Shown here: positions 29,357 to 61,392 of the stretch, in pieces
How the letters are laid out: each line of letters starts with the position of its first letter
How positions within the stretch are numbered: position 1 is the stretch's first letter
Sequence record: OR352947.1
From: Escherichia phage AV117
Length of the DNA: 64,000 nt
Reading direction: 5' to 3' (one strand)
Translations under genes and position numbers: made by a program
Notes under the pieces: model-generated
The model's database searches: none
What the model saw: the letters and a program-made list of their open reading frames with translations, nothing else
What the model was told of the DNA's origin: nothing

Positions 29357-29659
29357 TTATTTACCTTTAATTACTTTAGCTGCTTCGATAGCCGCTTGCT
29401 GAAGGTCATCCATAGACATACCGAATTTAGAAGCAAAGTTATCAATTTTCCTTTCGACAGCATTCAAAGGCTTGGCCTGTTTACCTTCATTAGCGCCAGG
29501 AAGAGCGAGAATACGCTCTTTGTCAATATAAAGGCTTACAAGTTTCTTACGGTCTTTATCGGACAAATCATGAAATGAATGGGCCTTTTTATTTATAGCG
29601 GCTTCTAATTTACCTGCACTCACTCGCGCTTCAGTAATAAATTCTTGATATGTTTTCAT
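29357..29659 (-). CDS. Internal protein (IPIII-like) with capsid targeting sequence
   Basis: N-terminus MKTYQEFITE matches the T4 internal-protein CTS consensus MKTYQEFIAE. Confidence 0.65.
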   Translation of the reverse strand: MKTYQEFITEARVSAGKLEAAINKKAHSFHDLSDKDRKKLVSLYIDKERILALPGANEGKQAKPLNAVERKIDNFASKFGMSMDDLQQAAIEAAKVIKGK

Positions 29660-30802: not shown

Positions 30803-31084
30803 CTATTTTTCTGAAGCGCCCGAAATATATTTTTCAAGACGTTGTTTCATCAGCGAGCCGTTCTTAGCGATTTCTTCCGGTTTATCGCACATGCGCAACA
30901 AGGCTTCAAGCTTAACGATATCACTGGTACGTTCAAATTTGCGAGTATCTATCTTACTAGCAAGTTCAGAAATACGTGCTAATAGACTTTCAGCTTCAAC
31001 CAAAGCTGCACCTAGCTTAGTCGCAAATGTGTCAGTAGCTTCGTTAAGAATAGATTCTGATAAAAATTCACTATATGTTTTCAT
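30803..31084 (-). CDS. Internal protein-like (CTS variant [10 protein letters not shown])
   Basis: Start at ATG 31084, overlapping the gene e stop (ATGA); CTS-like N-terminus. Confidence 0.55.
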
Positions 31085-31569
31085 ATATACGCTTTCCAAG
31101 TTCCTGTTTTAAATGTTGAGATTACGCGTTTCGCTCGATTAGGTGTCTGACGATACCATTTAGATTGGGCTAGATTTACTGCCGCTTCATCCCAACGTTT
31201 CTGTTGAAGCATACGAAGAGAATTAGTAAAACCAGCGACGCCTGCTACACCCATTTGGAAGACCATATTGACCAATGCACATCGACGAACTGCATCTAAA
31301 GAATCATATACCGGTTTAAGTTTAGCATTACCCAAGATTCCGCGAACAGCTTTATCAACGTCTTCATTAAATAACTTTTCAGCCTCATCAAGGGTAATTG
31401 TACCGTTGCATTTACGTCCGATCATTCTGTCAAGTTCAGCTTTAGCTACGGTTAAAGACGGGTTCTTTGTTACTAAATGACCTATGCCAATCGTCCAAAA
31501 GCCTTCAGTGTCTTTGTATAAAGACAGTCTAAGACCTTCGTCATTACGAAGCATTTCAAATATATTCAT
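31081..31569 (-). CDS. e: Endolysin (T4 lysozyme)
   Basis: 162 aa from ATG 31569, [32 protein letters not shown]... with catalytic E11/D20; SD GGAGGTATT. Confidence 0.9.
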
Positions 31570-31603: not shown

Positions 31604-32062
31604 TTATAGGATGGTAGTGAGCACCTTATATAATGATTTGCCCATTACATATTCCCATTGAGAAGGTTTAATTAAAGCGAATGCATCAAATTCAGGAATC
31701 TGTCGTCCGTCTTGGAACGTATGATAGGAATTACAAACACTGTTTCTGAATTGCTCGTGCTCTACAGGGATGGTATATAGGAACAGATGAATATTCTTAT
31801 TGTCTGAGTAACGATGTTCACCTAGGTCTTTCAGGAAGGCAGGGTCATATTGTGTAAACCCAGTTTCTTCTTCGCATTCACGAATAGCGGCTTCGATAGG
31901 AGATTCACCTGGCTCGACACGGCCTTTAGGAATATCCCACCGATGAGCTAAAGAACCTTTAGGACGAGAACCAGTTACACGCCCCATGAATAATTCTTTA
32001 TCTTCGGTAAGGAAAATAATACCGGCTGATAGTTCTTTCACTTTATTTTTCTTACTCATCAT
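31604..32062 (-). CDS. nudE: Nudix hydrolase NudE
   Basis: Nudix box GRVEPGESPIEAAIRECEEETG; start at ATG 32062 with SD AGGAATTTGAG. Confidence 0.75.
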   Translation of the reverse strand: MMSKKNKVKELSAGIIFLTEDKELFMGRVTGSRPKGSLAHRWDIPKGRVEPGESPIEAAIRECEEETGFTQYDPAFLKDLGEHRYSDNKNIHLFLYTIPVEHEQFRNSVCNSYHTFQDGRQIPEFDAFALIKPSQWEYVMGKSLYKVLTTIL

Positions 32063-32550
32063 CTCAAATTCCTGCATTCGGTAATAAAACGTTCAACTTC
32101 ATTATTCTTGGCCTTTATCTTGTCTTTACGTTCCTGTAAACTACTTTTAACAAGATTAATAATGATGGCGGCGGTACCGCCGCCAATGATGCCACCAACA
32201 ACACTTATGATACTAGATGCTAATAAGATAGCAATAATATCAACAAAACCGAAAGAACTCACCTTAGTACTGAAAAACCATATAGATGGTACAAATATAA
32301 TCCATCCTGTTATCCATTGGCACTTATTGAAAAACCTTTCAAGCTCAGCTTGAGTTGTTCGTATTACTTCATCGATAGGTTGATATCCATTAATGTATCT
32401 GTTCACGATAATACCTGCTGGCTGGTCGATTTTAAATTCTTGGCAAATATGTTTCACTAAGTAGGATGGACAGGATGTCCAATCTACTGAATAGTATGAA
32501 ATACCTTCATTGCCATCGTCTATATTAGACCAATATGTTTTGTTAATCAT
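32059..32550 (-). CDS. Hypothetical membrane protein with C-terminal FITECR motif
   Basis: 163 aa; two TM helices; C-terminus ...EVERFITECRNLR. Confidence 0.5.
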   Translation of the reverse strand: MINKTYWSNIDDGNEGISYYSVDWTSCPSYLVKHICQEFKIDQPAGIIVNRYINGYQPIDEVIRTTQAELERFFNKCQWITGWIIFVPSIWFFSTKVSSFGFVDIIAILLASSIISVVGGIIGGGTAAIIINLVKSSLQERKDKIKAKNNEVERFITECRNLR

Positions 32551-33236
32551 TACCAGCCTTCCATAGGGAATTCCAGATAAACTTGAGCATTGACACGAAT
32601 TTCATTGGTAATCTTTTTAACTCGGTCTGTATTACGAGATACACGTCCGAACCAACGCCATCCATTACTAATTGCACGAGAACCAGTGTGCCATGTTTGC
32701 CAATCAAACTGAAGAAGAGTACGATCTGGAGCTTCCCATTTCTCTAGTTCACCTTTTTCGATTTTTTCGAGGACTTCTTTGTGCCACTGGCGATAGATAA
32801 GTTCGCCATCAGGAATCTGACTGAACTCTGCAGTTCCTGTTGCAAAATGAGTAGGACACACATCAGCGTTAACAAGACCAAGAATATGTTCAGAATGGTA
32901 ACGAGGGTTGTCATAGTCAGGTTGTCCTGCAGTAATAAAGTGTTGACCAACTGGAATATCAGGGCGTGGTACGTCATCATGGTGATAGCCTGGGATTGCA
33001 GGATACCAACCAGGCATCAGCATGTGGACTCGTGAATCAAATACAACCTGGTCGGTGTTCCAATCATCCGGCAAGTTCATAATGAAAGAGCGAGTAATAG
33101 GACCGCCATTATTATAAGCAAATTCTAAACTACAGTTGAAGAACATAGGCTCGTTCTTGATTTTATCATTAGAAATACCGCCAGCAAAACCACCTACTGC
33201 ACGAGCTTGACTATTAAACACTTTAGAACTATTCAT
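32550..33236 (-). CDS. Hypothetical protein
   Basis: 228-aa ORF rich in His/Asp/Trp (HHDD, HFATG); no confident family assignment. Confidence 0.5.
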   Translation of the reverse strand: MNSSKVFNSQARAVGGFAGGISNDKIKNEPMFFNCSLEFAYNNGGPITRSFIMNLPDDWNTDQVVFDSRVHMLMPGWYPAIPGYHHDDVPRPDIPVGQHFITAGQPDYDNPRYHSEHILGLVNADVCPTHFATGTAEFSQIPDGELIYRQWHKEVLEKIEKGELEKWEAPDRTLLQFDWQTWHTGSRAISNGWRWFGRVSRNTDRVKKITNEIRVNAQVYLEFPMEGW

Positions 33237-33237
33237 A

Positions 33238-33543
33238 TTATTTTCCTCGACATTCTTTAATGAAATTTTCTAGATTGGTAGATTCAATAGCTTTTTTACG
33301 AGCTTCTGCGTGTTCTTCTTCGGACAATTTACGTTTATAATTGACCCAGACATTATGGTCGAAACCAGTCGTGGCATATAATAACAATGCTCCAACGAAT
33401 AGCAAAAACGGCGATAAGAATACAAAACCAGGAACACCATCCATATCGTAAGCCTTTTGTAATACTGCAACAGAAAGAGCTACGTAAAAAGGTGATGCAA
33501 GTATTGTTAAAAGACCAATTCGGTTGGTTTCTGTTAATTTCAT
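33238..33543 (-). CDS. Hypothetical membrane protein with C-terminal FIKECR motif
   Basis: 101 aa; two TM helices; ...NLENFIKECRGK; SD GAGGAGAATATT. Confidence 0.5.
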   Translation of the reverse strand: MKLTETNRIGLLTILASPFYVALSVAVLQKAYDMDGVPGFVFLSPFLLFVGALLLYATTGFDHNVWVNYKRKLSEEEHAEARKKAIESTNLENFIKECRGK

Positions 33544-33569
33544 AATATTCTCCTCAAGTTGATAGGACT

Positions 33570-33599
33570 ACTATAACATAGCCCTATCAGTTTGTACAC
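33570..33599 (-). promoter_or_regulatory. Early promoter in palindrome GATAGGACT/AGCCCTATC
   Basis: TATAGT -10 inside the inverted repeat; -35-like GTGTAC. Confidence 0.45.
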
Positions 33600-33800
33600 T
33601 TATTTTGACATTTCTTCGATGTCACGACGATACCCATCACGAACTTCACGAAGAGCTTCAAGGCCACACATAGGCTCGATACCAGTAATGTGAACTTGAT
33701 TAATCTGATACTCTACATCTTCTAACTGAGCGAAAACATAACGACGTTCTGCTGCACAACCAGGTTTAGCTTTACCGAAACGTTTATTCAAAGTAGTCAT
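33600..33800 (-). CDS. Hypothetical protein
   Basis: Start at ATG 33800 (MTTLNKRFGK...) with SD GGAGATATAAAA; ORF-track start is GTG. Confidence 0.45.
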   Translation of the reverse strand: MTTLNKRFGKAKPGCAAERRYVFAQLEDVEYQINQVHITGIEPMCGLEALREVRDGYRRDIEEMSK

Positions 33801-33838
33801 TTTTATATCTCCATTCACTCATTTGTTTTGATAGGTCT

Positions 33839-33868
33839 ATAGTATCAACAACTACAGACCTTGTAAAC
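33839..33868 (-). promoter_or_regulatory. Early promoter (GTTTAC-N18-TACTAT) with inverted repeat AGGTCT/AGACCT
   Basis: Minus strand GTTTACaaggtctgtagttgttgaTACTATagacctatc. Confidence 0.5.
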
Positions 33869-33881
33869 AGTTTTTGCGAAA

Positions 33882-34838
33882 TTATTTGAAAGGTTTTACC
33901 ATATGAAAGTTTTGTTTGAAACGCTTGACGTAATCGTCATGTCCTAAGCTTTGGTACATACTTACTACTTTGCTATAATTTTCCCAAGCGAACTCACGGA
34001 ACCAACCGGAGGTGATGCTTGTGCAGACTTTTTCTAATGCCATCATGAAACTGGCTTCAGGGTTAATTTCAAAGTTATTAGGAATCTGAGAACGTTCTAA
34101 CGCTAGTACACATGATTCTTCGTATACACCGGCCAATTTGACCATTTCTGGTAACGATTCGAACTTCTCGCGTGAGGTCATGACTTCAGAACCGTCTTTC
34201 ATGTAAAACGTATATGCTGGACGGTCTGTTAGTGCAATGGCTTCATGAATAGTATCATGGTCATATGTATAGATATCATCTTTAAAGAACGCACTTTTAG
34301 AAGTGTCAAGAACTGGGTGAGCATAGTTCAAGGTTTCTTTCTGGCGTTTCAGCATAATTTCAGTAAGTTCATCGTTCAGTATAACACCTTTACCACGAAG
34401 ATACTGAATATGGTTCATAGTCTTTAAAAAGAATGGATTATTTTTCTTGAAACGATGAGACATCTTAATTGCAAGGCACATCTCAGGAGTTGCCCAGTAA
34501 AACCCGTTCAAACGGTCTTTAGTCAAATTTTTCTTGGCGTATTTTAAAAGGTCATAAGAAGACGTGAAATCTTCAGGAGTGAGTTCACCGACCAATTCAC
34601 GGACATTAGTGATTGCCGGAACAATATATGCTTCAAAATGAGTTTCGCGTCCATTATGGAAGCATTTGAAAACTTGGACATCAGGGTTATCTTGATGAAC
34701 ATATACACCCATCATTTGATTTTTAAATGCATTCCAAGAACTTTGGTCTGCAATAAAGTCCCAATCACTATTTTTGATAGCGTTAGAATCAATAAGACCG
34801 TGATAGTGAAGTGCACGAGAACCAATAACTAACATCAT
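33882..34838 (-). CDS. Hypothetical protein, possible nucleotidyltransferase fold
   Basis: 318 aa; N-terminal VIGSRALHYHG...SDWDFIA resembles the hG[GS]...[DE]h[DE]h signature; weak evidence. Confidence 0.5.
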   Translation of the reverse strand: MMLVIGSRALHYHGLIDSNAIKNSDWDFIADQSSWNAFKNQMMGVYVHQDNPDVQVFKCFHNGRETHFEAYIVPAITNVRELVGELTPEDFTSSYDLLKYAKKNLTKDRLNGFYWATPEMCLAIKMSHRFKKNNPFFLKTMNHIQYLRGKGVILNDELTEIMLKRQKETLNYAHPVLDTSKSAFFKDDIYTYDHDTIHEAIALTDRPAYTFYMKDGSEVMTSREKFESLPEMVKLAGVYEESCVLALERSQIPNNFEINPEASFMMALEKVCTSITSGWFREFAWENYSKVVSMYQSLGHDDYVKRFKQNFHMVKPFK

Positions 34839-34862
34839 AATATTTTCCTCGGATTAATTAAC

Positions 34863-35102
34863 TTAAATTTCACGACATGCGATATTATATTCATCCCAGA
34901 GGTCATCGTGTGAAGCCTCTACCAATGGAACGATTGTACCATTTATATCTTCATTATAAGGGCAAATTGTACAATGTGCATCTTCGAATCGGATGCCTTT
35001 GTGTTCAGATTTTTTATAACGCATATCGAATATCTTTGCAAACTTTTCACGAGTAATGGTTTTAGCAACCACTTCGGTTCCAACACTTTCATAATAAATC
35101 AT
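34863..35102 (-). CDS. Hypothetical protein
   Basis: Start at ATG 35102 (MIYYESVG...) with SD GGAG. Confidence 0.45.
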   Translation of the reverse strand: MIYYESVGTEVVAKTITREKFAKIFDMRYKKSEHKGIRFEDAHCTICPYNEDINGTIVPLVEASHDDLWDEYNIACREI

Positions 35103-35130
35103 TGTGGACTCCATTTAATTTGATAGGACT

Positions 35131-35160
35131 ACTATAACATAGTCCTATCTTGTTGTAAAC
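35131..35160 (-). promoter_or_regulatory. Early promoter (GTTTAC-N18-TATAGT) in palindrome GATAGGACT/AGTCCTATC (near-identical copy at 41861-41890)
   Basis: Minus strand GTTTACaacaagataggactatgtTATAGTagtcctatc. Confidence 0.5.
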
Positions 35161-35164
35161 TGTT

Positions 35165-35362
35165 TTAGCAAGAATAACTAGATGATACCCAGCCTTGAAC
35201 AGTGATACTATTGTGGGATAATGAGATCGCGTCCTGGAGATTCAGACCTGCGTTATCTTCAATCCATAACGTAACTTCTTCGCGTTCTTCTGTTGCAATT
35301 TGGAACAGGTTTTCCAGAGCAGCTACTGCCGTACGTACAGCACAATCTAATTCACGAGACAT
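35165..35362 (-). CDS. Small protein, C-terminal GWVSSSYSC (paralogue family of three)
   Basis: 65 aa; shares the terminal W-[VI]-[SA]-S-S-x-x-C motif with 35372-35644 and 35654-35959. Confidence 0.5.
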   Translation of the reverse strand: MSRELDCAVRTAVAALENLFQIATEEREEVTLWIEDNAGLNLQDAISLSHNSITVQGWVSSSYSC

Positions 35363-35371
35363 ATGGTTTCC

Positions 35372-35644
35372 TTAACAAGTGTGAGAAGATGCGATCCAAC
35401 CACCAGTTTCGAGGCTCAGGTTGTAGTCGTATTGGTAAACGTCGGCCCATTCAGCATAGCCATTTTTTGTACAACGTTCAAGATCGGCTTTAAGTTGTCC
35501 GGGTGAATGATAGGTTCCACCCATACCATAAGCTGGACACAAGTCGAATGATGTGTTTTGTTTATCAGCAATTTCTTTGGCAGCCTCAATAGCTGCATAG
35601 ATTTTTGCTACAGCTTCAGCCAGTTCGGTTTGTTCTTTAGACAT
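35372..35644 (-). CDS. Small protein, C-terminal GWIASSHTC (paralogue family)
   Basis: 90 aa; internal similarity to the next paralogue (KIADQ / G.GGTY). Confidence 0.5.
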   Translation of the reverse strand: MSKEQTELAEAVAKIYAAIEAAKEIADKQNTSFDLCPAYGMGGTYHSPGQLKADLERCTKNGYAEWADVYQYDYNLSLETGGWIASSHTC

Positions 35645-35653
35645 AGTGATTCC

Positions 35654-35959
35654 TTAGCACAACGCAGAAGACGAAACCCAAGCACCTTCAGTAATAATGT
35701 AACCATTACCTTCACGCTTAACATCGCCACCATTATTTTCAATTTCATCTTTCATCCACTGGGATACGATTTCACCCTTAGGATAATAAGTACGACCACT
35801 ACCATAATCACCTACAGAAAATGATACGGCATATTGGTCTGCGATCTTTGTTGCTTCTTCTTCGATACGTTCAGCTTGATTCAGAAGTTTATAAATTGCA
35901 TCTGAAGCGGATTTGGCATCATTAAACTCTGGTACTTTAATTTCAATAATCTTACTCAT
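35654..35959 (-). CDS. Small protein, C-terminal AWVSSSALC (paralogue family)
   Basis: 101-aa ORF. Confidence 0.5.
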   Translation of the reverse strand: MSKIIEIKVPEFNDAKSASDAIYKLLNQAERIEEEATKIADQYAVSFSVGDYGSGRTYYPKGEIVSQWMKDEIENNGGDVKREGNGYIITEGAWVSSSALC

Positions 35960-36315
35960 TTTCTACATTCCTTAATAAAGTTTTCGATTGTTTCATTTTC
36001 ACGTCTAGCTAGGAGTTCATTATAACTAATCATTTGAGAAGCGTAAACCTTTTTATTTTTCTTGTTATGGTTTATAAAATCGTAGTAAAAATAGACTACA
36101 GTACAAAATGATGCGATGGATGCAAAGGCTTGTGTATACCGTAAGTCCTGCCATTGGTCTGTGAATCCGCCAGTGTTCCCTATAAATCCTAACACAACGC
36201 CGTCAATAAGAAATCCAACTAATCCAAAGGCAAATCCCATGCCAATACTCATAATAAAAATTAGAATGTTCTCACCAAGAGAAGGCCATACGGTTAAGAG
36301 TTGAGGCTTTTGCAT
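35956..36315 (-). CDS. Hypothetical membrane protein with C-terminal FIKECR motif
   Basis: 119 aa; TM helices; ...IENFIKECRK. Confidence 0.5.
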   Translation of the reverse strand: MQKPQLLTVWPSLGENILIFIMSIGMGFAFGLVGFLIDGVVLGFIGNTGGFTDQWQDLRYTQAFASIASFCTVVYFYYDFINHNKKNKKVYASQMISYNELLARRENETIENFIKECRK

Positions 36316-36689
36316 CTTATTTCCTTAACGAATTCCATAGCTTCTTCATATTCATACTTTTTAACAGCTTCATCATACTGAGCTTGGGCTTTTGCGCACT
36401 GAACTTTCCACTCACGAACTCGAGCTCTGTGATGACGGCCTTGGTGCCAATATCCTGCCCAATTAATAGGCATTAATAAAAACGGTACAATAAGTGGTGC
36501 GACGAACATTAATGAAAACGCTGCATCAGACGATATAACTTTATTGGAATCTAAAACAGCTCCTATAATCATAAAGATTAAAAACGCTAAAGCTAAAATA
36601 GGGCCAAATAGTACTTCATTTGGGATTAATTTACGTTTGTATTCGTATGCCCAGGGCTTAATTGGCATGTACAGGGTTGGCTTTGACAT
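36294..36689 (-). CDS. Hypothetical membrane protein with C-terminal FVKEIRC motif
   Basis: TM helices; ...AMEFVKEIRCKSLNS; start ambiguous (36689 or 36668). Confidence 0.45.
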   Translation of the reverse strand: MSKPTLYMPIKPWAYEYKRKLIPNEVLFGPILALAFLIFMIIGAVLDSNKVISSDAAFSLMFVAPLIVPFLLMPINWAGYWHQGRHHRARVREWKVQCAKAQAQYDEAVKKYEYEEAMEFVKEIRCKSLNS

Positions 36690-37254
36690 ATTCTCTACAT
36701 TCCATAATAAATTGCTCAAGGATTAAATTGTTAGTGAAATTAGGACTAACAACCATGGTTTCATAAAGCGCATCAATAGCACTTAAAGCATCAACTCTTT
36801 TAAGCAAAGGCTTGCCTTCATACATAGTTTCAGAATCGACGATTAACGTAAAGTAATATTTTTTATTATCGACTAGAACTTCAGTATCGATATAAAACAT
36901 GTTAGACCTTAAAAGCTTGTCTCTAAAGCCTAAGTAATCATCTGAACGTTCACTGATATAGTCCCATTCAGTGTTTAAACAACAAACAGACCACGTAGGA
37001 GCAACGAAATCAGTGAATCTAATATCATGGTCTGCAACTAGTTTAGCAATAGCTCCGATATCATGAATCATAATACCTGGGGCTAATAAAGATTTTCGGT
37101 TATTTGCATATTCAGTTGTCTCATAAGAAGACGACCAGTACCATTTACGTCCAGTTGCAACATATCGTAATGAATCAACTAAAGACGTAGGTGGATTTAC
37201 CTTATTTCGGAACTCTTCGAACATTGAGTCAATATCATTATTTTGGTTTCGCAT
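36658..37254 (-). CDS. Hypothetical protein with C-terminal FIMECR motif
   Basis: Start at ATG 37254 (MRNQNNDIDSMFEEF...) with SD AAAGGAG; ORF-track start is TTG. Confidence 0.5.
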   Translation of the reverse strand: MRNQNNDIDSMFEEFRNKVNPPTSLVDSLRYVATGRKWYWSSSYETTEYANNRKSLLAPGIMIHDIGAIAKLVADHDIRFTDFVAPTWSVCCLNTEWDYISERSDDYLGFRDKLLRSNMFYIDTEVLVDNKKYYFTLIVDSETMYEGKPLLKRVDALSAIDALYETMVVSPNFTNNLILEQFIMECREYVKANPVHAN

Positions 37255-37272: not shown

Positions 37273-37295
37273 CAAAAGGAGGACCGGAGTCCTCC
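37273..37295 (-). terminator. Hairpin GGAGGAC-UCCG-GUCCUCC with a short U-tract
   Basis: 7-bp perfect stem right after the stop of 37304-37897 and before the SD of the next gene. Confidence 0.5.
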
Positions 37296-37303
37296 GTATT
37301 ATT

Positions 37304-37897
37304 TTATTTCAAAGAGTTAATATATTCTTGTACATCGGCAGAAGTGGTTTCGACACCGGTTGGAGTGCCATTGAACGTTTCAACACGAGTCAGAGTGTCT
37401 TCGATATCAACCTTAGTTAGTGCAGCGATTTCAATTACATCATCGGCCGTAGAGATACCAAGGGCATTGGCTGCTCGAGTTTCACGAATGTATTCGAGTT
37501 TGATTGCCAGATTCTGACGAGCATCATCAAGTTCAACCACCTTACGAGCAATTTCAATTCGCATAGCGGCATACCCGTCAGCTTTTGTATTAAGTTGTTC
37601 GGCAGTTCGACGATACAGAAGACCAAGCTTAGCATGCATGGTAACATCTTGTCCTTCAGCCAGGAGCTTACGAATTTCACGTTCCTTAGAAGCTGCTTGC
37701 TTGTTCTTTTCATTAACAAGTTCGCGAATACGTTTTTCTTCATTAATAGATTTAACAGAAGCCGTTTTTAGTTCTTTGATTTGGGTAATCAACTTATCTG
37801 CAGCTGCGTTATACTGTTCTTCGACAGTCAGATTTTTAGCCATAGCAGTACCCAGTTTAGTGCGGATGAATTCAACAAGTTTCTTCAGTGTGTTCAT
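37304..37897 (-). CDS. Coiled-coil protein (a PspA/IM30-like helical architecture is possible but unproven)
   Basis: 197 aa from ATG 37897 ([10 protein letters not shown]...) with SD AAGGTAATAAT; heptad-rich. Confidence 0.5.
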
Positions 37898-37938: not shown

Positions 37939-37967
37939 ATTATACTCTGCTCTCAAGAGTTTGTAAA
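37939..37967 (-). promoter_or_regulatory. Early promoter (TTTACA-N17-TATAAT) in a palindromic cassette (copy B of the 7674-7702 element)
   Basis: Minus strand TTTACAaactcttgagagcagagTATAATgctctc. Confidence 0.5.
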
Positions 37968-58364: not shown

Positions 58365-59944
58365 GTAATAACAATACATACCAACACGTTTCAAACGAAT
58401 CCATTTACGTTGAATTCGACCCTACGGGGACGAATTTTCCAGATACAGTCACTAATGTCCAAGCCGCATTAGCTGCTATTTCTCCTTCAGGTGTTAATGG
58501 TGTACCGGAAGCAACAACTACTACACCAGGAATTATTCAAATAGCTACTCCACAAGAAGTTATTGATGGATTAGATAATAATAAAGCTGTTACTCCGGCA
58601 TCACTGAATGCTCGTCTACAATATCCTAATGCAACCGAAACTCAATATGGCTTAACTCGTTATGCTACTGAAGATGAAGCAGTAACCGGAACTATTGACG
58701 ATGCATCAATTACTCCGCTTAAATTGAATCAAAAAATAGACAATGTATTTCAGACAAAAGTGTCAACAGAAGCAACAAATGGTGTAATTAAAATTTCAAC
58801 TTCTGCTGCGGCATTAGCTGGTTCTGACGATACAACAGCAATGACTCCGTTAAAAACGCAACAATTAGCAATTAAACTTATTTCACAAATTGCTCCAAAT
58901 AATAGCGACGCCACCGAATCTATTACCGGTGTTGTTCGTTTGGCTACAGTTGCTCAAGCACAACAAGGCACCCTGCGTGAAGGCTATGCAATTTCGCCTT
59001 ATACCTTTATGAATTCAGTAGCATCAGAAACTAATAAAGGCGTTGTTAAACTAGGGACACAGACTGAAGTAAATAGTAACAACTCTTCAGTTGTAGTGAC
59101 CGGCGCAACATTAAACGGGCGTGGGGCTACAACTTCTTTACGTGGAGTTGTTCGTTTAACTACACAAGCGGGTAACCAATCAGGTGGTGATGGTTCTTCT
59201 GCTCTTGCTTGGAATGCTGATGTTATCCACCAACGAGGCGGACAAACTATTAATGGCACACTTCGCATTAATAATACGTTGACGGTTGGTTCTGGCGGCG
59301 CTAATATAACGGGCAATGTCAATATGTCCGGTGGTTATATTCAAGGCAATCGTATTGTGACTCAAAATGAATTAGACCGAATTCTTCCAGTTGGCGCTAT
59401 TACAATGTGGGCTGCAGATAGTTTACCGAGTTCTGACTGGCGCTTCTGTCATGGTGGGACCGTTTCTGCTTCAGAATGTCCGGTATATGCTTCCAGAATT
59501 GGGACACGATATGGTGGTAGTTCTTCTAACCCAGGCTTGCCTGATATGCGTGGATTATTTGTTCGTGGCTCAGGTCGTGGCTCTCACTTAACAAATCCAA
59601 ATGTTAATGGTAATGACCAGTTTGGTAAGCCTAGATTAGGTGTAGGTTGTACTGGTGGATATGTTGGTGAAGTACAGAAACAACAGATGTCTTATCATAA
59701 ACACGCTGGCGGATTTGGTGAGCATGATGATTCTGGAGCATTCGGTAATACCCGTAGATCAAATTTTGTTGGTACACGTAAAGGACTTGACTGGGATAAC
59801 CGTTCATACTTCACCAATGACGGATATGAAATTGACCCGGCATCACAACGAAATTCCAAATATACATTAAATCGTCCTGAATTAATTGGAAATGAAACAC
59901 GTCCATGGAACATTTCTTTAAACTATATCATTAAGGTAAAATAA
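58361..59944 (+). CDS. 12: Short tail fiber gp12
   Basis: 527 aa, same length as T4 gp12; [14 protein letters not shown]...; C-terminal receptor-binding region ...[18 protein letters not shown]. Confidence 0.9.
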
Positions 59945-61392
59945 TGGCTGATATAACTCTGGTAGATTTACCATATGTTGACGGCCCGCCAGACGCGGGT
60001 CAGAGTCGTATTGAATGGATTAAAAACGATGAAGAAATAACAGGTGCTGACACAAAATACGGTTCTGAAGGTGTAATGAACCGTCCTATTGTTGAAGTTC
60101 AACGTAACGTAGAAGCGTTAGATGTTAATATTAAAACTATAGCATCTTCTCTGAATACGGCCAATGAAGATATAAAAGCTATTCAAGGTATTTTAAATGT
60201 TTCTGGGGATGTTGATGCTCTTGCACAGATAGGCCAGAACACTCAAGATATTGATGTCATTAAAGTCACAGTTCAAACCCATGCTAGTGAATTGACTGAT
60301 TTGAATAAACATATTGATGCGAATACTGATGATATTGGTGTTTATAATCAGGAAACAGATTCAGTTTATAGAACTGTTCGTAACGACCTGCTTTGGATTA
60401 AAAATGAATTAGGACAATATACCGGTCAAGATATTAATGGGGTTCCTACTCCAGGAAATGATAGCACCGGTATGAAACGCCGTATTATGACTAATAGCTC
60501 CGTAATTGTTGACCACGGTGTTCGATTAACTGATTTAGAAACTAAATTTGCTGATTCTGACGTCGGCTCTTTAACTAATGAAGTCGAACACTTGCGCGAA
60601 GAAATGGGACCTCGCACTTCTTTCACTACTCCAGTATTTAGTCGTCTTTCCGGTATTGATTTAACTTTGTCGCGTCAAAATGCTGACTTGGATGGCATTA
60701 AACAGTCTATTGGGTATCCTAATACGACTTCTATTATCACTACCACTAATGCAAATAGTTCAGCAATAAACGACATTAATCTTGAGCTCAATCAATCAGG
60801 TGGTATTAAACCTCGTTTGACTACAGTAGAAACTGCCATTGGCGCTGATGATTTGCCTACTACAATCCAAGGACGTATTAAACTCAATACTGATGCTATC
60901 GGAGCATTGAACACTGTTGTCGGCTCTGATTCTTCGTCAGGACTGCGTTTTAATGTGTCATGGTTAAATAACGTAGTTGGTGTTGACGCTTCAGGTGGGA
61001 AACCGGAACCAGACGGCTCTTTGCTTTATCGTACTCGAGCGCTTGAAGGATCTATCGGTGAGATGAGTAATGACATTCAGAACATTCAAACTGATGTTGG
61101 GACTAATGCCACAGGGATTAAGGGTTCTGTAAACACATTAAATACTCTTATAAATGGCACCAACCCAAATGGTTCGACTGTTGAAGAACGTGGTATATTG
61201 CCTACAGTTAAAAGTCATGATACGACAATTAATGGTTTAACTTCTAGAATTGCTACTCTTGAAACTGATTTGGCCGCTGCAGAAGCCGAAATCCAAACTC
61301 TTAAGGACGCTGGATATATTGAAGATGCTCCTTCAGACGGTAAATTCTATGTTCGCAAAGACGGTGCATGGGTTGAACTTCCTACAGCTTAA
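59944..61392 (+). CDS. wac: Fibritin (whisker antigen control)
   Basis: 482 aa; long coiled-coil segments; C-terminal foldon GYIEDAPSDGKFYVRKDGAWVELPTA. Confidence 0.9.
   Translation: MADITLVDLPYVDGPPDAGQSRIEWIKNDEEITGADTKYGSEGVMNRPIVEVQRNVEALDVNIKTIASSLNTANEDIKAIQGILNVSGDVDALAQIGQNTQDIDVIKVTVQTHASELTDLNKHIDANTDDIGVYNQETDSVYRTVRNDLLWIKNELGQYTGQDINGVPTPGNDSTGMKRRIMTNSSVIVDHGVRLTDLETKFADSDVGSLTNEVEHLREEMGPRTSFTTPVFSRLSGIDLTLSRQNADLDGIKQSIGYPNTTSIITTTNANSSAINDINLELNQSGGIKPRLTTVETAIGADDLPTTIQGRIKLNTDAIGALNTVVGSDSSSGLRFNVSWLNNVVGVDASGGKPEPDGSLLYRTRALEGSIGEMSNDIQNIQTDVGTNATGIKGSVNTLNTLINGTNPNGSTVEERGILPTVKSHDTTINGLTSRIATLETDLAAAEAEIQTLKDAGYIEDAPSDGKFYVRKDGAWVELPTA

Follow-up and report, generated by a model that had tools for sequence, protein, structure and literature searches.

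A short C-terminal tail shared by otherwise unrelated early proteins of T4-like phages, most likely a docking peptide in a phage-encoded Psp/ESCRT-III-like setting

We analyzed a stretch of 64,000 nucleotides from Escherichia phage AV117 (sequence record OR352947.1), hereafter the window, with a focus on a cluster of early genes, between e.6 and nudE, several of which encode proteins that end in the same short peptide. The region belongs to a Mosigvirus (a T4-like phage of the RB69/JS09 type) and shows 96-97% identity to vB_EcoM_TU01, JS09 and phage 55. All genes of the cluster are located on the minus strand and follow each other, in the order of transcription, as e.6, P5, P4, P3, three small paralogues, three further genes, P2, a gene for a 228-amino-acid protein, P1, nudE, e (lysozyme), an internal protein gene and denV. 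Taking the T4 orthologues from NC_000866, P5, P4, P3 and P1 correspond to e.5, e.4, e.3 and e.2, respectively, and P2 is an extra gene. The three further genes between the small paralogues and P2 include the gene for a 318-amino-acid DUF7277/DUF7275 protein (33882-34838).

An earlier note on this DNA, made from the letters alone, had described five open reading frames (ORFs) of the cluster as a family with a common C-terminal motif, comprising four small membrane proteins with two transmembrane (TM) helices each and one soluble protein. All five ORFs are present on the minus strand, with the C-termini read there. P1 (32059..32550, 163 amino acids) combines an N-terminal soluble domain with two or three TM segments and a cytoplasmic tail ending VERFITECRNLR (core 32071-32097; phrog_2203); P2 (33238..33543, 101 amino acids) has two TM segments and a K/R-rich cytoplasmic tail ending LENFIKECRGK (core 33247-33273; phrog_9798); P3 (35956..36315, 119 amino acids) is a membrane protein ending IENFIKECRK (core 35962-35988); P4 (36294..36689, 131 amino acids, two TM segments) carries the variant tail AMEFVKEIRCKSLNS (core 36315-36341); and P5 (36658..37254, 198 amino acids, no TM segment) carries the tail LEQFIMECREYVKANPVHAN, the core of which (36694-36720) lies in a predicted helix (residues 177-192). 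Hydropathy bears out the division into four membrane proteins and a soluble one, but P1, with its soluble domain and possible third TM segment, does not fit the description of a small two-TM protein. Likewise, the claim of a shared ending holds in the strict F-I-x-E-C-R form for P1, P2, P3 and P5, whereas P4 has a shifted variant (EFVKEIRC; F-V-K-E-I-R-C); the ATG of P3 falls within the Arg-Cys codons of P4. When the tail group is defined by [FY]-[IV]-x-x-C-[RK] within 16 residues of the C-terminus and a hydrophobic residue at position -3, P1, P2, P3 and P5 are strict members and P4 belongs with Ile in place of Cys. The tails are placed in the cytoplasm, as the earlier note had it, because the C-terminal tails contain 9-11 Lys and Arg residues compared to 0-1 in the loops between the TM segments.

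The five proteins are full-length members of phrog_2203, 9798, 2330, 2604 and 2607 and of the Pfam families PF26873/PF26876; these are separate families with no assigned function, and the shared tail is recorded in none of them. A Pfam search with the five proteins and ten neighbors returned nothing useful except for DUF7277/DUF7275 in the 318-amino-acid protein and Phage_FRD3, and sequence searches of the PDB with P1 and P5 gave no matches. The tail of P5 is predicted to be helical, in an AlphaFold2 (AF2) model that is poor overall (predicted local distance difference test, pLDDT, 60); the Foldseek matches of this model are meaningless.

The recurrence of the motif in the window is not a matter of chance. 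The strict pattern F[IV]xEC[RK] occurs exactly four times in the six-frame translation of the window, each time 1-11 residues before the stop codon of P1, P2, P3 or P5, compared to 0.24 matches expected in six frames from the amino acid composition of the window and 0.004 in the last 20 residues of approximately 110 genes. At the nucleotide level, the back-translated pattern TTYATHNNNGARTGYMG yields four matches in the window and 0.06 in shuffled sequences. A position-specific scoring matrix (PSSM) built from the tails of other phages sets all five proteins, together with T4 e.3, e.4 and e.5, apart from all other positions among approximately 51,000 ORF positions, and BLASTP among the five proteins detects no similarity beyond the last 9-22 residues. 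Outside the tails, the highest PSSM score of the data set (11.7) belongs to an internal tail-like segment of P1, AELERFFNKCQW (residues 65-78), immediately before the first TM segment; this segment is not conserved in T4-type e.2.

The spread of the tail was surveyed in the e-region of phages from seven further genera and in 80 IMG/VR loci anchored on nudE. The search of other T4-like genomes that the earlier note had called for shows that the motif is kept in orthologues, namely in T4 e.3, e.4 and e.5 and in VR7, Bp7, LC53, Merci and a Karamvirus phage; the T4 proteins end in EFVIDCRKIK (e.3), KFVKESRCKSQS (e.4) and KFVKECREYVKA… (e.5). On the coding strand of the 80 loci, 108 matches to the strict pattern F[IV]xxCR lie no more than 16 residues from the stop codon of a long ORF and 3 lie inside long ORFs; the opposite strand has 5 in long ORFs. 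The 78 unique tails of the IMG/VR loci yield the consensus Φ(-3)-x-x-[FY]-[IV]-x-x-C-[RK], where Φ is a hydrophobic residue, followed by 0-15 mostly basic residues: position -3, which the earlier note had missed, is hydrophobic (L33, I14, F14, V11), positions -2 and -1 are acidic or polar, and C-R is followed by K, G or R and then a short end. The Glu preceding Cys, which had been counted as part of the motif, is present in only 23 of the 78 tails and lies outside the core. The hydrophobic positions have the spacing of an amphipathic helix (i, i+3, i+4, i+7).

Bragavirus-like and Muldoon-like phages have Y-I-x-x-C-R or F-I-x-x-C-K forms that retain the Cys, which is replaced by Ile or Val in the e.4 family (FVKEIR, FIKEVR) and in the Kar_120 family of Karamvirus and Winklervirus (FIQGIR, FIRGIR), and by Met in Merci_52 (WIKEMK). 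A more specific DNA pattern, when scanned against the collection, retrieved only orthologues of P1, P2 and P3 and one Karamvirus family. A search of a protein database with the tail profile, which is short, returned fragments only, and literature searches on the peptide strings and on T4 e.3, e.5 and e.6 produced nothing relevant, the motif being described in no paper found.

To speak of a family of five is an understatement: within Tevenvirinae and outside it, the carriers make up at least 13 unrelated protein groups. When the tail was masked, 31 carriers fell, in a phmmer comparison, into 6 or more families and 7 or more singletons without cross-family similarity. TM segments are predicted in 41 of the 78 tail proteins and none in the remaining 37. 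The carriers, early proteins that have nothing else in common and whose genes lie between e.6 and nudE in T4-like phages, divide about evenly into small two-TM proteins and soluble ones. No gene outside the cluster carries the motif in the window or in positions 1-76.5 kb of T4, where the only carriers are e.5, e.3 and a C-terminal ORF of e.2.

The last of these carriers reflects a peculiarity of the T4 reference sequence. The annotated e.2 (102 amino acids) is a disrupted version of a 163-amino-acid gene (L024 3973-4461; NC_000866 67,472-67,960, minus strand): its central part is shifted out of frame, and the tail is carried by a separate ORF of 51 amino acids, absent from the annotation, that overlaps the start of nudE. 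The intact ORF is present in other Tequatrovirus contigs (L046, L047), where it ends in …NLNNFITECRKLK. The disrupted e.2 is either a laboratory-strain pseudogene or a product of old sequencing errors. Another T4 protein with a similar end is thymidine kinase, which terminates in Y-[VI]-S-[LF]-C-R-K-H-[WY] (L033, T4 59,763-60,344; tk genes in L066-L089); we take this likeness to be superficial, a part of the conserved C-terminus of thymidine kinase itself that is to be left out of tail scans.

Is the peptide or the underlying nucleic acid under selection? The earlier note had argued for the protein level from the divergence of the DNA. Within the window the core DNA is not very divergent, with 15-16 of the 18 core nucleotides identical, and the window copies alone are therefore no proof of selection at the protein level, a conclusion that is safe only with a larger sample. 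In the 78 unique tails, codon usage at F (TTT 50, TTC 28), I (ATT 37, ATC 15, ATA 9) and C (TGC 41, TGT 37) follows the genome background, and all six codons are used for the Arg, with CGN in 11 of 24 tails and in 41 of 78. At the nucleotide level, the one deviation is that AGA/AGG encode the Arg more often than expected (13 of 24 vs 4.4), which fits a secondary use of this codon within the downstream Shine-Dalgarno (SD) sequence. Each of the five window genes has its motif just upstream of the SD or start of the next gene or overlapping it, a feature overlooked in the earlier note, and 62 of the 71 tails that have a detectable downstream start overlap the next ORF, 30 of the 71 via ATGA. The SD does not keep a fixed place relative to the motif, however: P3 and P4 have it on the K-E codons (AAGGAA), P2 on the R-G codons (CGAGGA). 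Between the Arg codon and the next start there are 1 to 51 nucleotides, and the motif is kept despite a 30-nucleotide spacer after the stop codon in Merci_102 and Kar_117. Throughout the 80 loci the motif appears in a single reading frame, and no Rfam family matches the region. Given the free choice of codons, including all six for Arg, the variable spacing and the frame specificity, selection acts on the peptide. The tail motif is real, ancient and previously undescribed.

The first gene of the cluster, e.6 (37304..37897, minus strand), encodes a protein of 197 amino acids with a PspA/Vipp1-like helical hairpin. The AF2 model, built with 24 homologues (pLDDT 76.6, and above 90 in the hairpin), consists of an N-terminal helix α0, the long hairpin and two short C-terminal helices, and the top ten Foldseek matches of this model in the PDB are all Vipp1 or PspA (E from 6e-4, probability 1.0). 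An exhaustive profile search for the family gave 45 cluster representatives, the full-length ones of approximately 195-209 amino acids and the rest shorter fragments. The resulting broad profile matches Vipp1 among PDB sequences with E=2.4e-4 (residues 1-146 vs 1-147), and eight of the nine top matches are Vipp1 or PspA, colinear from residue 1. The broad alignment also aligns in register with E. coli PspA in hhalign (E=2e-4, probability 47%), whereas the close homologues alone gave no significant match, the score improving only with the broad alignment. Distant members of the family start with MGILSRI…, MSIFQRL… or MNIFKRL…, compared to MGIFSRF in PspA, and one of them matches the Pfam PspA_IM30 model with 22.3 bits (E=1.1e-4), below the cut-off of 33.9. 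Speaking against the assignment, neither the window protein nor the 24 close homologues match PspA_IM30 (PF04012), the gathering threshold remaining unreached. In sum, e.6 is very probably a member of the PspA/Vipp1 family (IM30, ESCRT-III superfamily). Text searches found no paper describing a phage PspA, and two broad Psp/ESCRT-III papers mention no phage-encoded homologues.

Two sequence features flank this gene, both of them consensus matches only: an early-type promoter-like site before e.6 (37939..37967, minus strand; TTTACA-17-TATAAT, 11 of 12 positions matching) and, between e.6 and P5, a GC-rich hairpin followed by a run of T that resembles an intrinsic terminator or attenuator (37278..37295, minus strand). 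Because these two elements bracket e.6, its expression may be partly separate from that of e.5-e.3.

Several lines of evidence connect e.6 with the tails. The extreme C-terminus of e.6, VQEYINSLK (37307-37333), has the register of the tail, Φ-x-x-Y-I-x-x-L-K, with Leu in the place of Cys (Φ-x-x-Y-[IL]-x-x-L-K in the family as a whole), and Y192 in this end is one of five near-invariant columns of the broad alignment. A relaxed C-terminal pattern, applied to approximately 200 ORFs of at least 90 amino acids from the window and T4 1-76.5 kb, is matched by e.6 and the tail proteins alone. Of the 41 loci that carry tails or Y/K variants of them, 39 also contain e.6, and the gene is missing from all 39 loci that have neither. 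Moreover, distant homologues of e.6 in unrelated metagenomic phages have neighbors, mostly membrane proteins, that end in HIIEQARNR…, EIVTKARGR…, KIVEQAREE…, KIIETAKSE…, MIINEARSN… or SIIEHSKRN…; ends of the type I-[IV]-x-x-[A/S]-[RK] are found in 7 of 32 such neighbors vs 14 of 1025 control ORFs (P ~2e-7).

In the ESCRT-III/Vipp1 polymer, a conserved domain-swap contact joins helix α5 of one subunit to the hairpin tip of another (Interface 1; PMC8281802), and in the bacterial systems the small membrane proteins PspB/C and LiaI recruit PspA and LiaH (PMC7619361). With these precedents, we tentatively favor the view that the tail is a modular cytoplasmic amphipathic helix that docks its carriers onto e.6 by mimicry of the C-terminal helix of the latter. 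The tail would imitate this conserved helix and thereby attach the carrier to the e.6 polymer; the small two-TM inner-membrane carriers would anchor or nucleate the polymer at this membrane, playing the part that PspB/PspC and LiaI have for PspA and LiaH; and the soluble carriers would ride on the polymer as clients. The physical binding of the tail to e.6, the site that is bound and the physiological role are the parts of this scheme that we infer. Of the three functions that the earlier note had offered for the tail, docking, degradation and a Cys-dependent site, docking is favored by the new evidence, and a dependence on Cys appears unlikely given that whole sub-families carry I, V, M, A or S at this position.

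Several observations weigh against docking on e.6. Because the genes are adjacent and confined to related phages, linkage and phylogeny confound the co-occurrence of e.6 and the tails; the pattern applied to the neighbors of distant e.6 homologues was a relaxed one, chosen in part with those data in view; four tails are retained in L054, a Karamvirus-like contig that lacks e.6 within 10 kb; co-variation of the e.6 C-terminus with the tails was looked for and none was seen; the near-invariant Cys of the tails corresponds to a Leu in e.6; and helix order is the only basis for equating the last helix of e.6 with α5. It is conceivable, if on balance unlikely, that the tail is a docking or oligomerization helix for another partner, such as a protein of the host cytoplasm or membrane periphery, another phage protein or a hetero-oligomeric bundle of the tail proteins themselves, with e.6 a mere neighbor. 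The evidence for a modular, cytoplasmic amphipathic helix selected as peptide applies equally to this alternative, to which the tails of L054 and the near-invariant Cys-Arg, unmirrored in the Leu-Lys of e.6, lend some weight. Nevertheless, it leaves unexplained why e.6 alone of the approximately 200 other ORFs ends in the tail pattern and why tail-like neighbors lie beside distant e.6 homologues, and no candidate partner has been identified.

A role of the tail in turnover, as a C-terminal degron or anti-degron for host ClpXP, FtsH or Lon that would time the removal of early proteins, appears very improbable. The extreme C-terminal position and the short basic ends (CRK, CRGK, CRKLK, CRRARK), which loosely recall the basic C-motif 2 of ClpX, would suit such a signal, but the conserved part is the helix face Φ..F-I..C-R rather than the last residues, the sequence after the motif being free and 0-15 residues long, and we know of no E. 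coli degron that resembles the tail. Very improbable, too, is a Cys-dependent site, in which the Cys, with the Arg, would bind a metal, act as a redox or disulfide switch or undergo covalent modification, for instance ADP-ribosylation by Alt, ModA or ModB. The invariance of Cys and Arg in the 78 strict tails follows from how these tails are defined, and the Cys is kept in the Y/K variants of Bragavirus-like and Muldoon-like phages; however, the orthologous groups described above (e.4, the Kar_120 family, Merci_52) swap it for Ile, Val or Met, the tail-like ends beside distant e.6 homologues have Ala or Ser, and there is a single Cys with no second conserved ligand in a reducing cytoplasm. These replacements are what would be expected of a small hydrophobic packing residue.

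The least probable of the alternatives is conservation at the level of nucleic acid or translation, be it as the SD and initiation region of the next gene, as a recombination junction for gene shuffling or as a nascent peptide that pauses the ribosome in the manner of SecM or MifM and aids translational coupling: the proximity of the motif to the next SD or start in all five window genes, the overlaps with the next ORF (62 of 71, 30 via ATGA), the AGA/AGG enrichment, gene-sized indels exactly at such junctions and a linker between TM segment and motif of mostly 30-36 amino acids would agree with it, but the background codon usage at F, I and C, the CGN codons for Arg, the shifting position of the SD, the spacing of 1-51 nucleotides to the next start, the single frame and the fact that the motif persists where a 30-nucleotide gap separates the genes and in soluble proteins that continue for up to 15 residues beyond it all oppose it. 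The likeness to known arrest peptides is superficial only: SecM, MifM and VemP have a fixed arrest sequence, in a secreted or membrane-inserted protein, at a defined distance upstream of the initiation region of the gene that they regulate, whereas here the spacing varies from 1 to 51 nucleotides and half of the carriers have no TM segment. Two variant tails contain a SecM-like 'GIRG' string, which was dismissed on account of its different spacing.

Docking on e.6, the reading that we prefer, would place the phage cluster next to several known systems. In the PspA-PspB/PspC system of E. coli and the LiaH-LiaI system of B. subtilis, the gene for a PspA-family scaffold adjoins genes for small inner-membrane proteins, as does, in the phage, the gene for e.6, which is PspA/Vipp1-like by profile and predicted fold, and the cytoplasmic parts of PspB/PspC and LiaI recruit the scaffold to the membrane (PMC7619361, PMC11237479). 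Unlike these systems, the phage one is encoded by a lytic phage, has many interchangeable partners, some of them soluble, with one common short tail, and has no PspF-type regulator. The tail motif is absent from E. coli PspA/B/C, and P1-P4 have no Pfam match to PspB, PspC or LiaI-LiaF-TM at E<=1, so the claim by analogy is that the tail membrane proteins may work like PspB/PspC/LiaI, not that they are members of these families. The α5 contact of ESCRT-III/Vipp1 and the MIT-interacting motif (MIM) peptides of ESCRT-III are likewise short C-terminal amphipathic helices, with hydrophobic residues at i, i+3/4 and i+7 and a terminal basic residue, that bind a subunit or partner (PMC8281802). In contrast to these, the phage helix would come in trans from non-ESCRT proteins, there is no MIT/Vps4 partner, and the binding is that proposed here for e.6.

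Short terminal peptides of other kinds are less similar. The FtsZ C-terminal peptide and the SSB tail are conserved short C-terminal peptides that follow a variable linker and bind partners. The FtsZ peptide also reads Φ-x-x-F-Φ followed by basic residues. The phage tails differ in that they have no Pro and contain Cys-Arg, and in that one peptide is present on many unrelated proteins instead of one protein having many partners. The capsid-targeting sequence of the T4 internal proteins (MKTYQEFIAE|A) is a short F-I-x-E peptide at a protein terminus, a portable handle encoded in the same genome region, but it is N-terminal, cleaved by the prohead protease and has no Cys. The tail shows neither the N-terminal location nor the (L/I)-x-E cleavage site of such sequences, being C-terminal and having Glu at +3 in 23 of 78 cases. 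Internal-protein genes with capsid-targeting leaders are present in the window at 29624-29641 (minus strand; start MKTYQEFITEAR) and 30803-31099 (minus strand), and the leader MKTYQEFITEAR matches F-I-x-E-x-R with Ala for Cys. We set this link aside as chance, with one extra F[IV]xExR match in the window vs approximately 2 expected in six frames.

The same cluster contains a second, distinct family of tails. Tandem arrays of two to five small soluble proteins end exactly in W-[VILY]-x-S-S-x-x-C-COOH (WVSSSALC, WIASSHTC, WVSSSYSC); in the window these are encoded at 35654-35959, 35372-35644 and 35165-35362 (minus strand), and similar arrays are found in other loci (L025 2307-3566, L026 2183-3221, L027 4329-4894, L029 3134-3660). 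A Pfam search gave no match for these small proteins. Across the 80 loci, their presence coincides almost perfectly with that of the 318-amino-acid DUF7277/DUF7275 protein, and both are absent from T4; this near-perfect co-occurrence suggests a functional pair, perhaps an enzyme and its substrates. A further peculiarity of the window is the lack of a 78-amino-acid gene that most relatives have between e.2 and nudE (window 32059-32080 vs L001 2553-2789). The deletion runs exactly between two GAGATGA repeats at stop/start junctions, and whole genes are therefore lost by microhomology at the junctions of translational coupling.

Ever since the T4 genome was sequenced, the genes e.2-e.8 have been without an assigned function, and the tail provides a common, testable feature of these genes, the carriers now being linked to a neighbor that resembles a phage PspA/Vipp1. 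A broader proposition, which we regard as doubtful at present, is that T4-like phages encode their own membrane-maintenance system of the Psp/ESCRT-III type, consisting of e.6 together with exchangeable membrane anchors and soluble clients that would join the polymer via an in-trans mimic of the domain-swap helix of the scaffold. Such a system would keep the inner membrane energized once the phage shuts off the host psp response; a phage copy would, by our own reasoning, make biological sense because the shut-off of host transcription by T4 blocks induction of the host psp operon. If docking on e.6 is true, this would be the first phage-encoded Psp/ESCRT-III-like module, with partners that join the polymer by imitating the α5 helix, and it would bear on the membrane potential of T4-infected cells during infection and lysis inhibition as well as on cargo recruitment in the ESCRT-III family. 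Most likely, then, the tail is a shared C-terminal docking peptide in a phage-encoded Psp/ESCRT-III-like setting.

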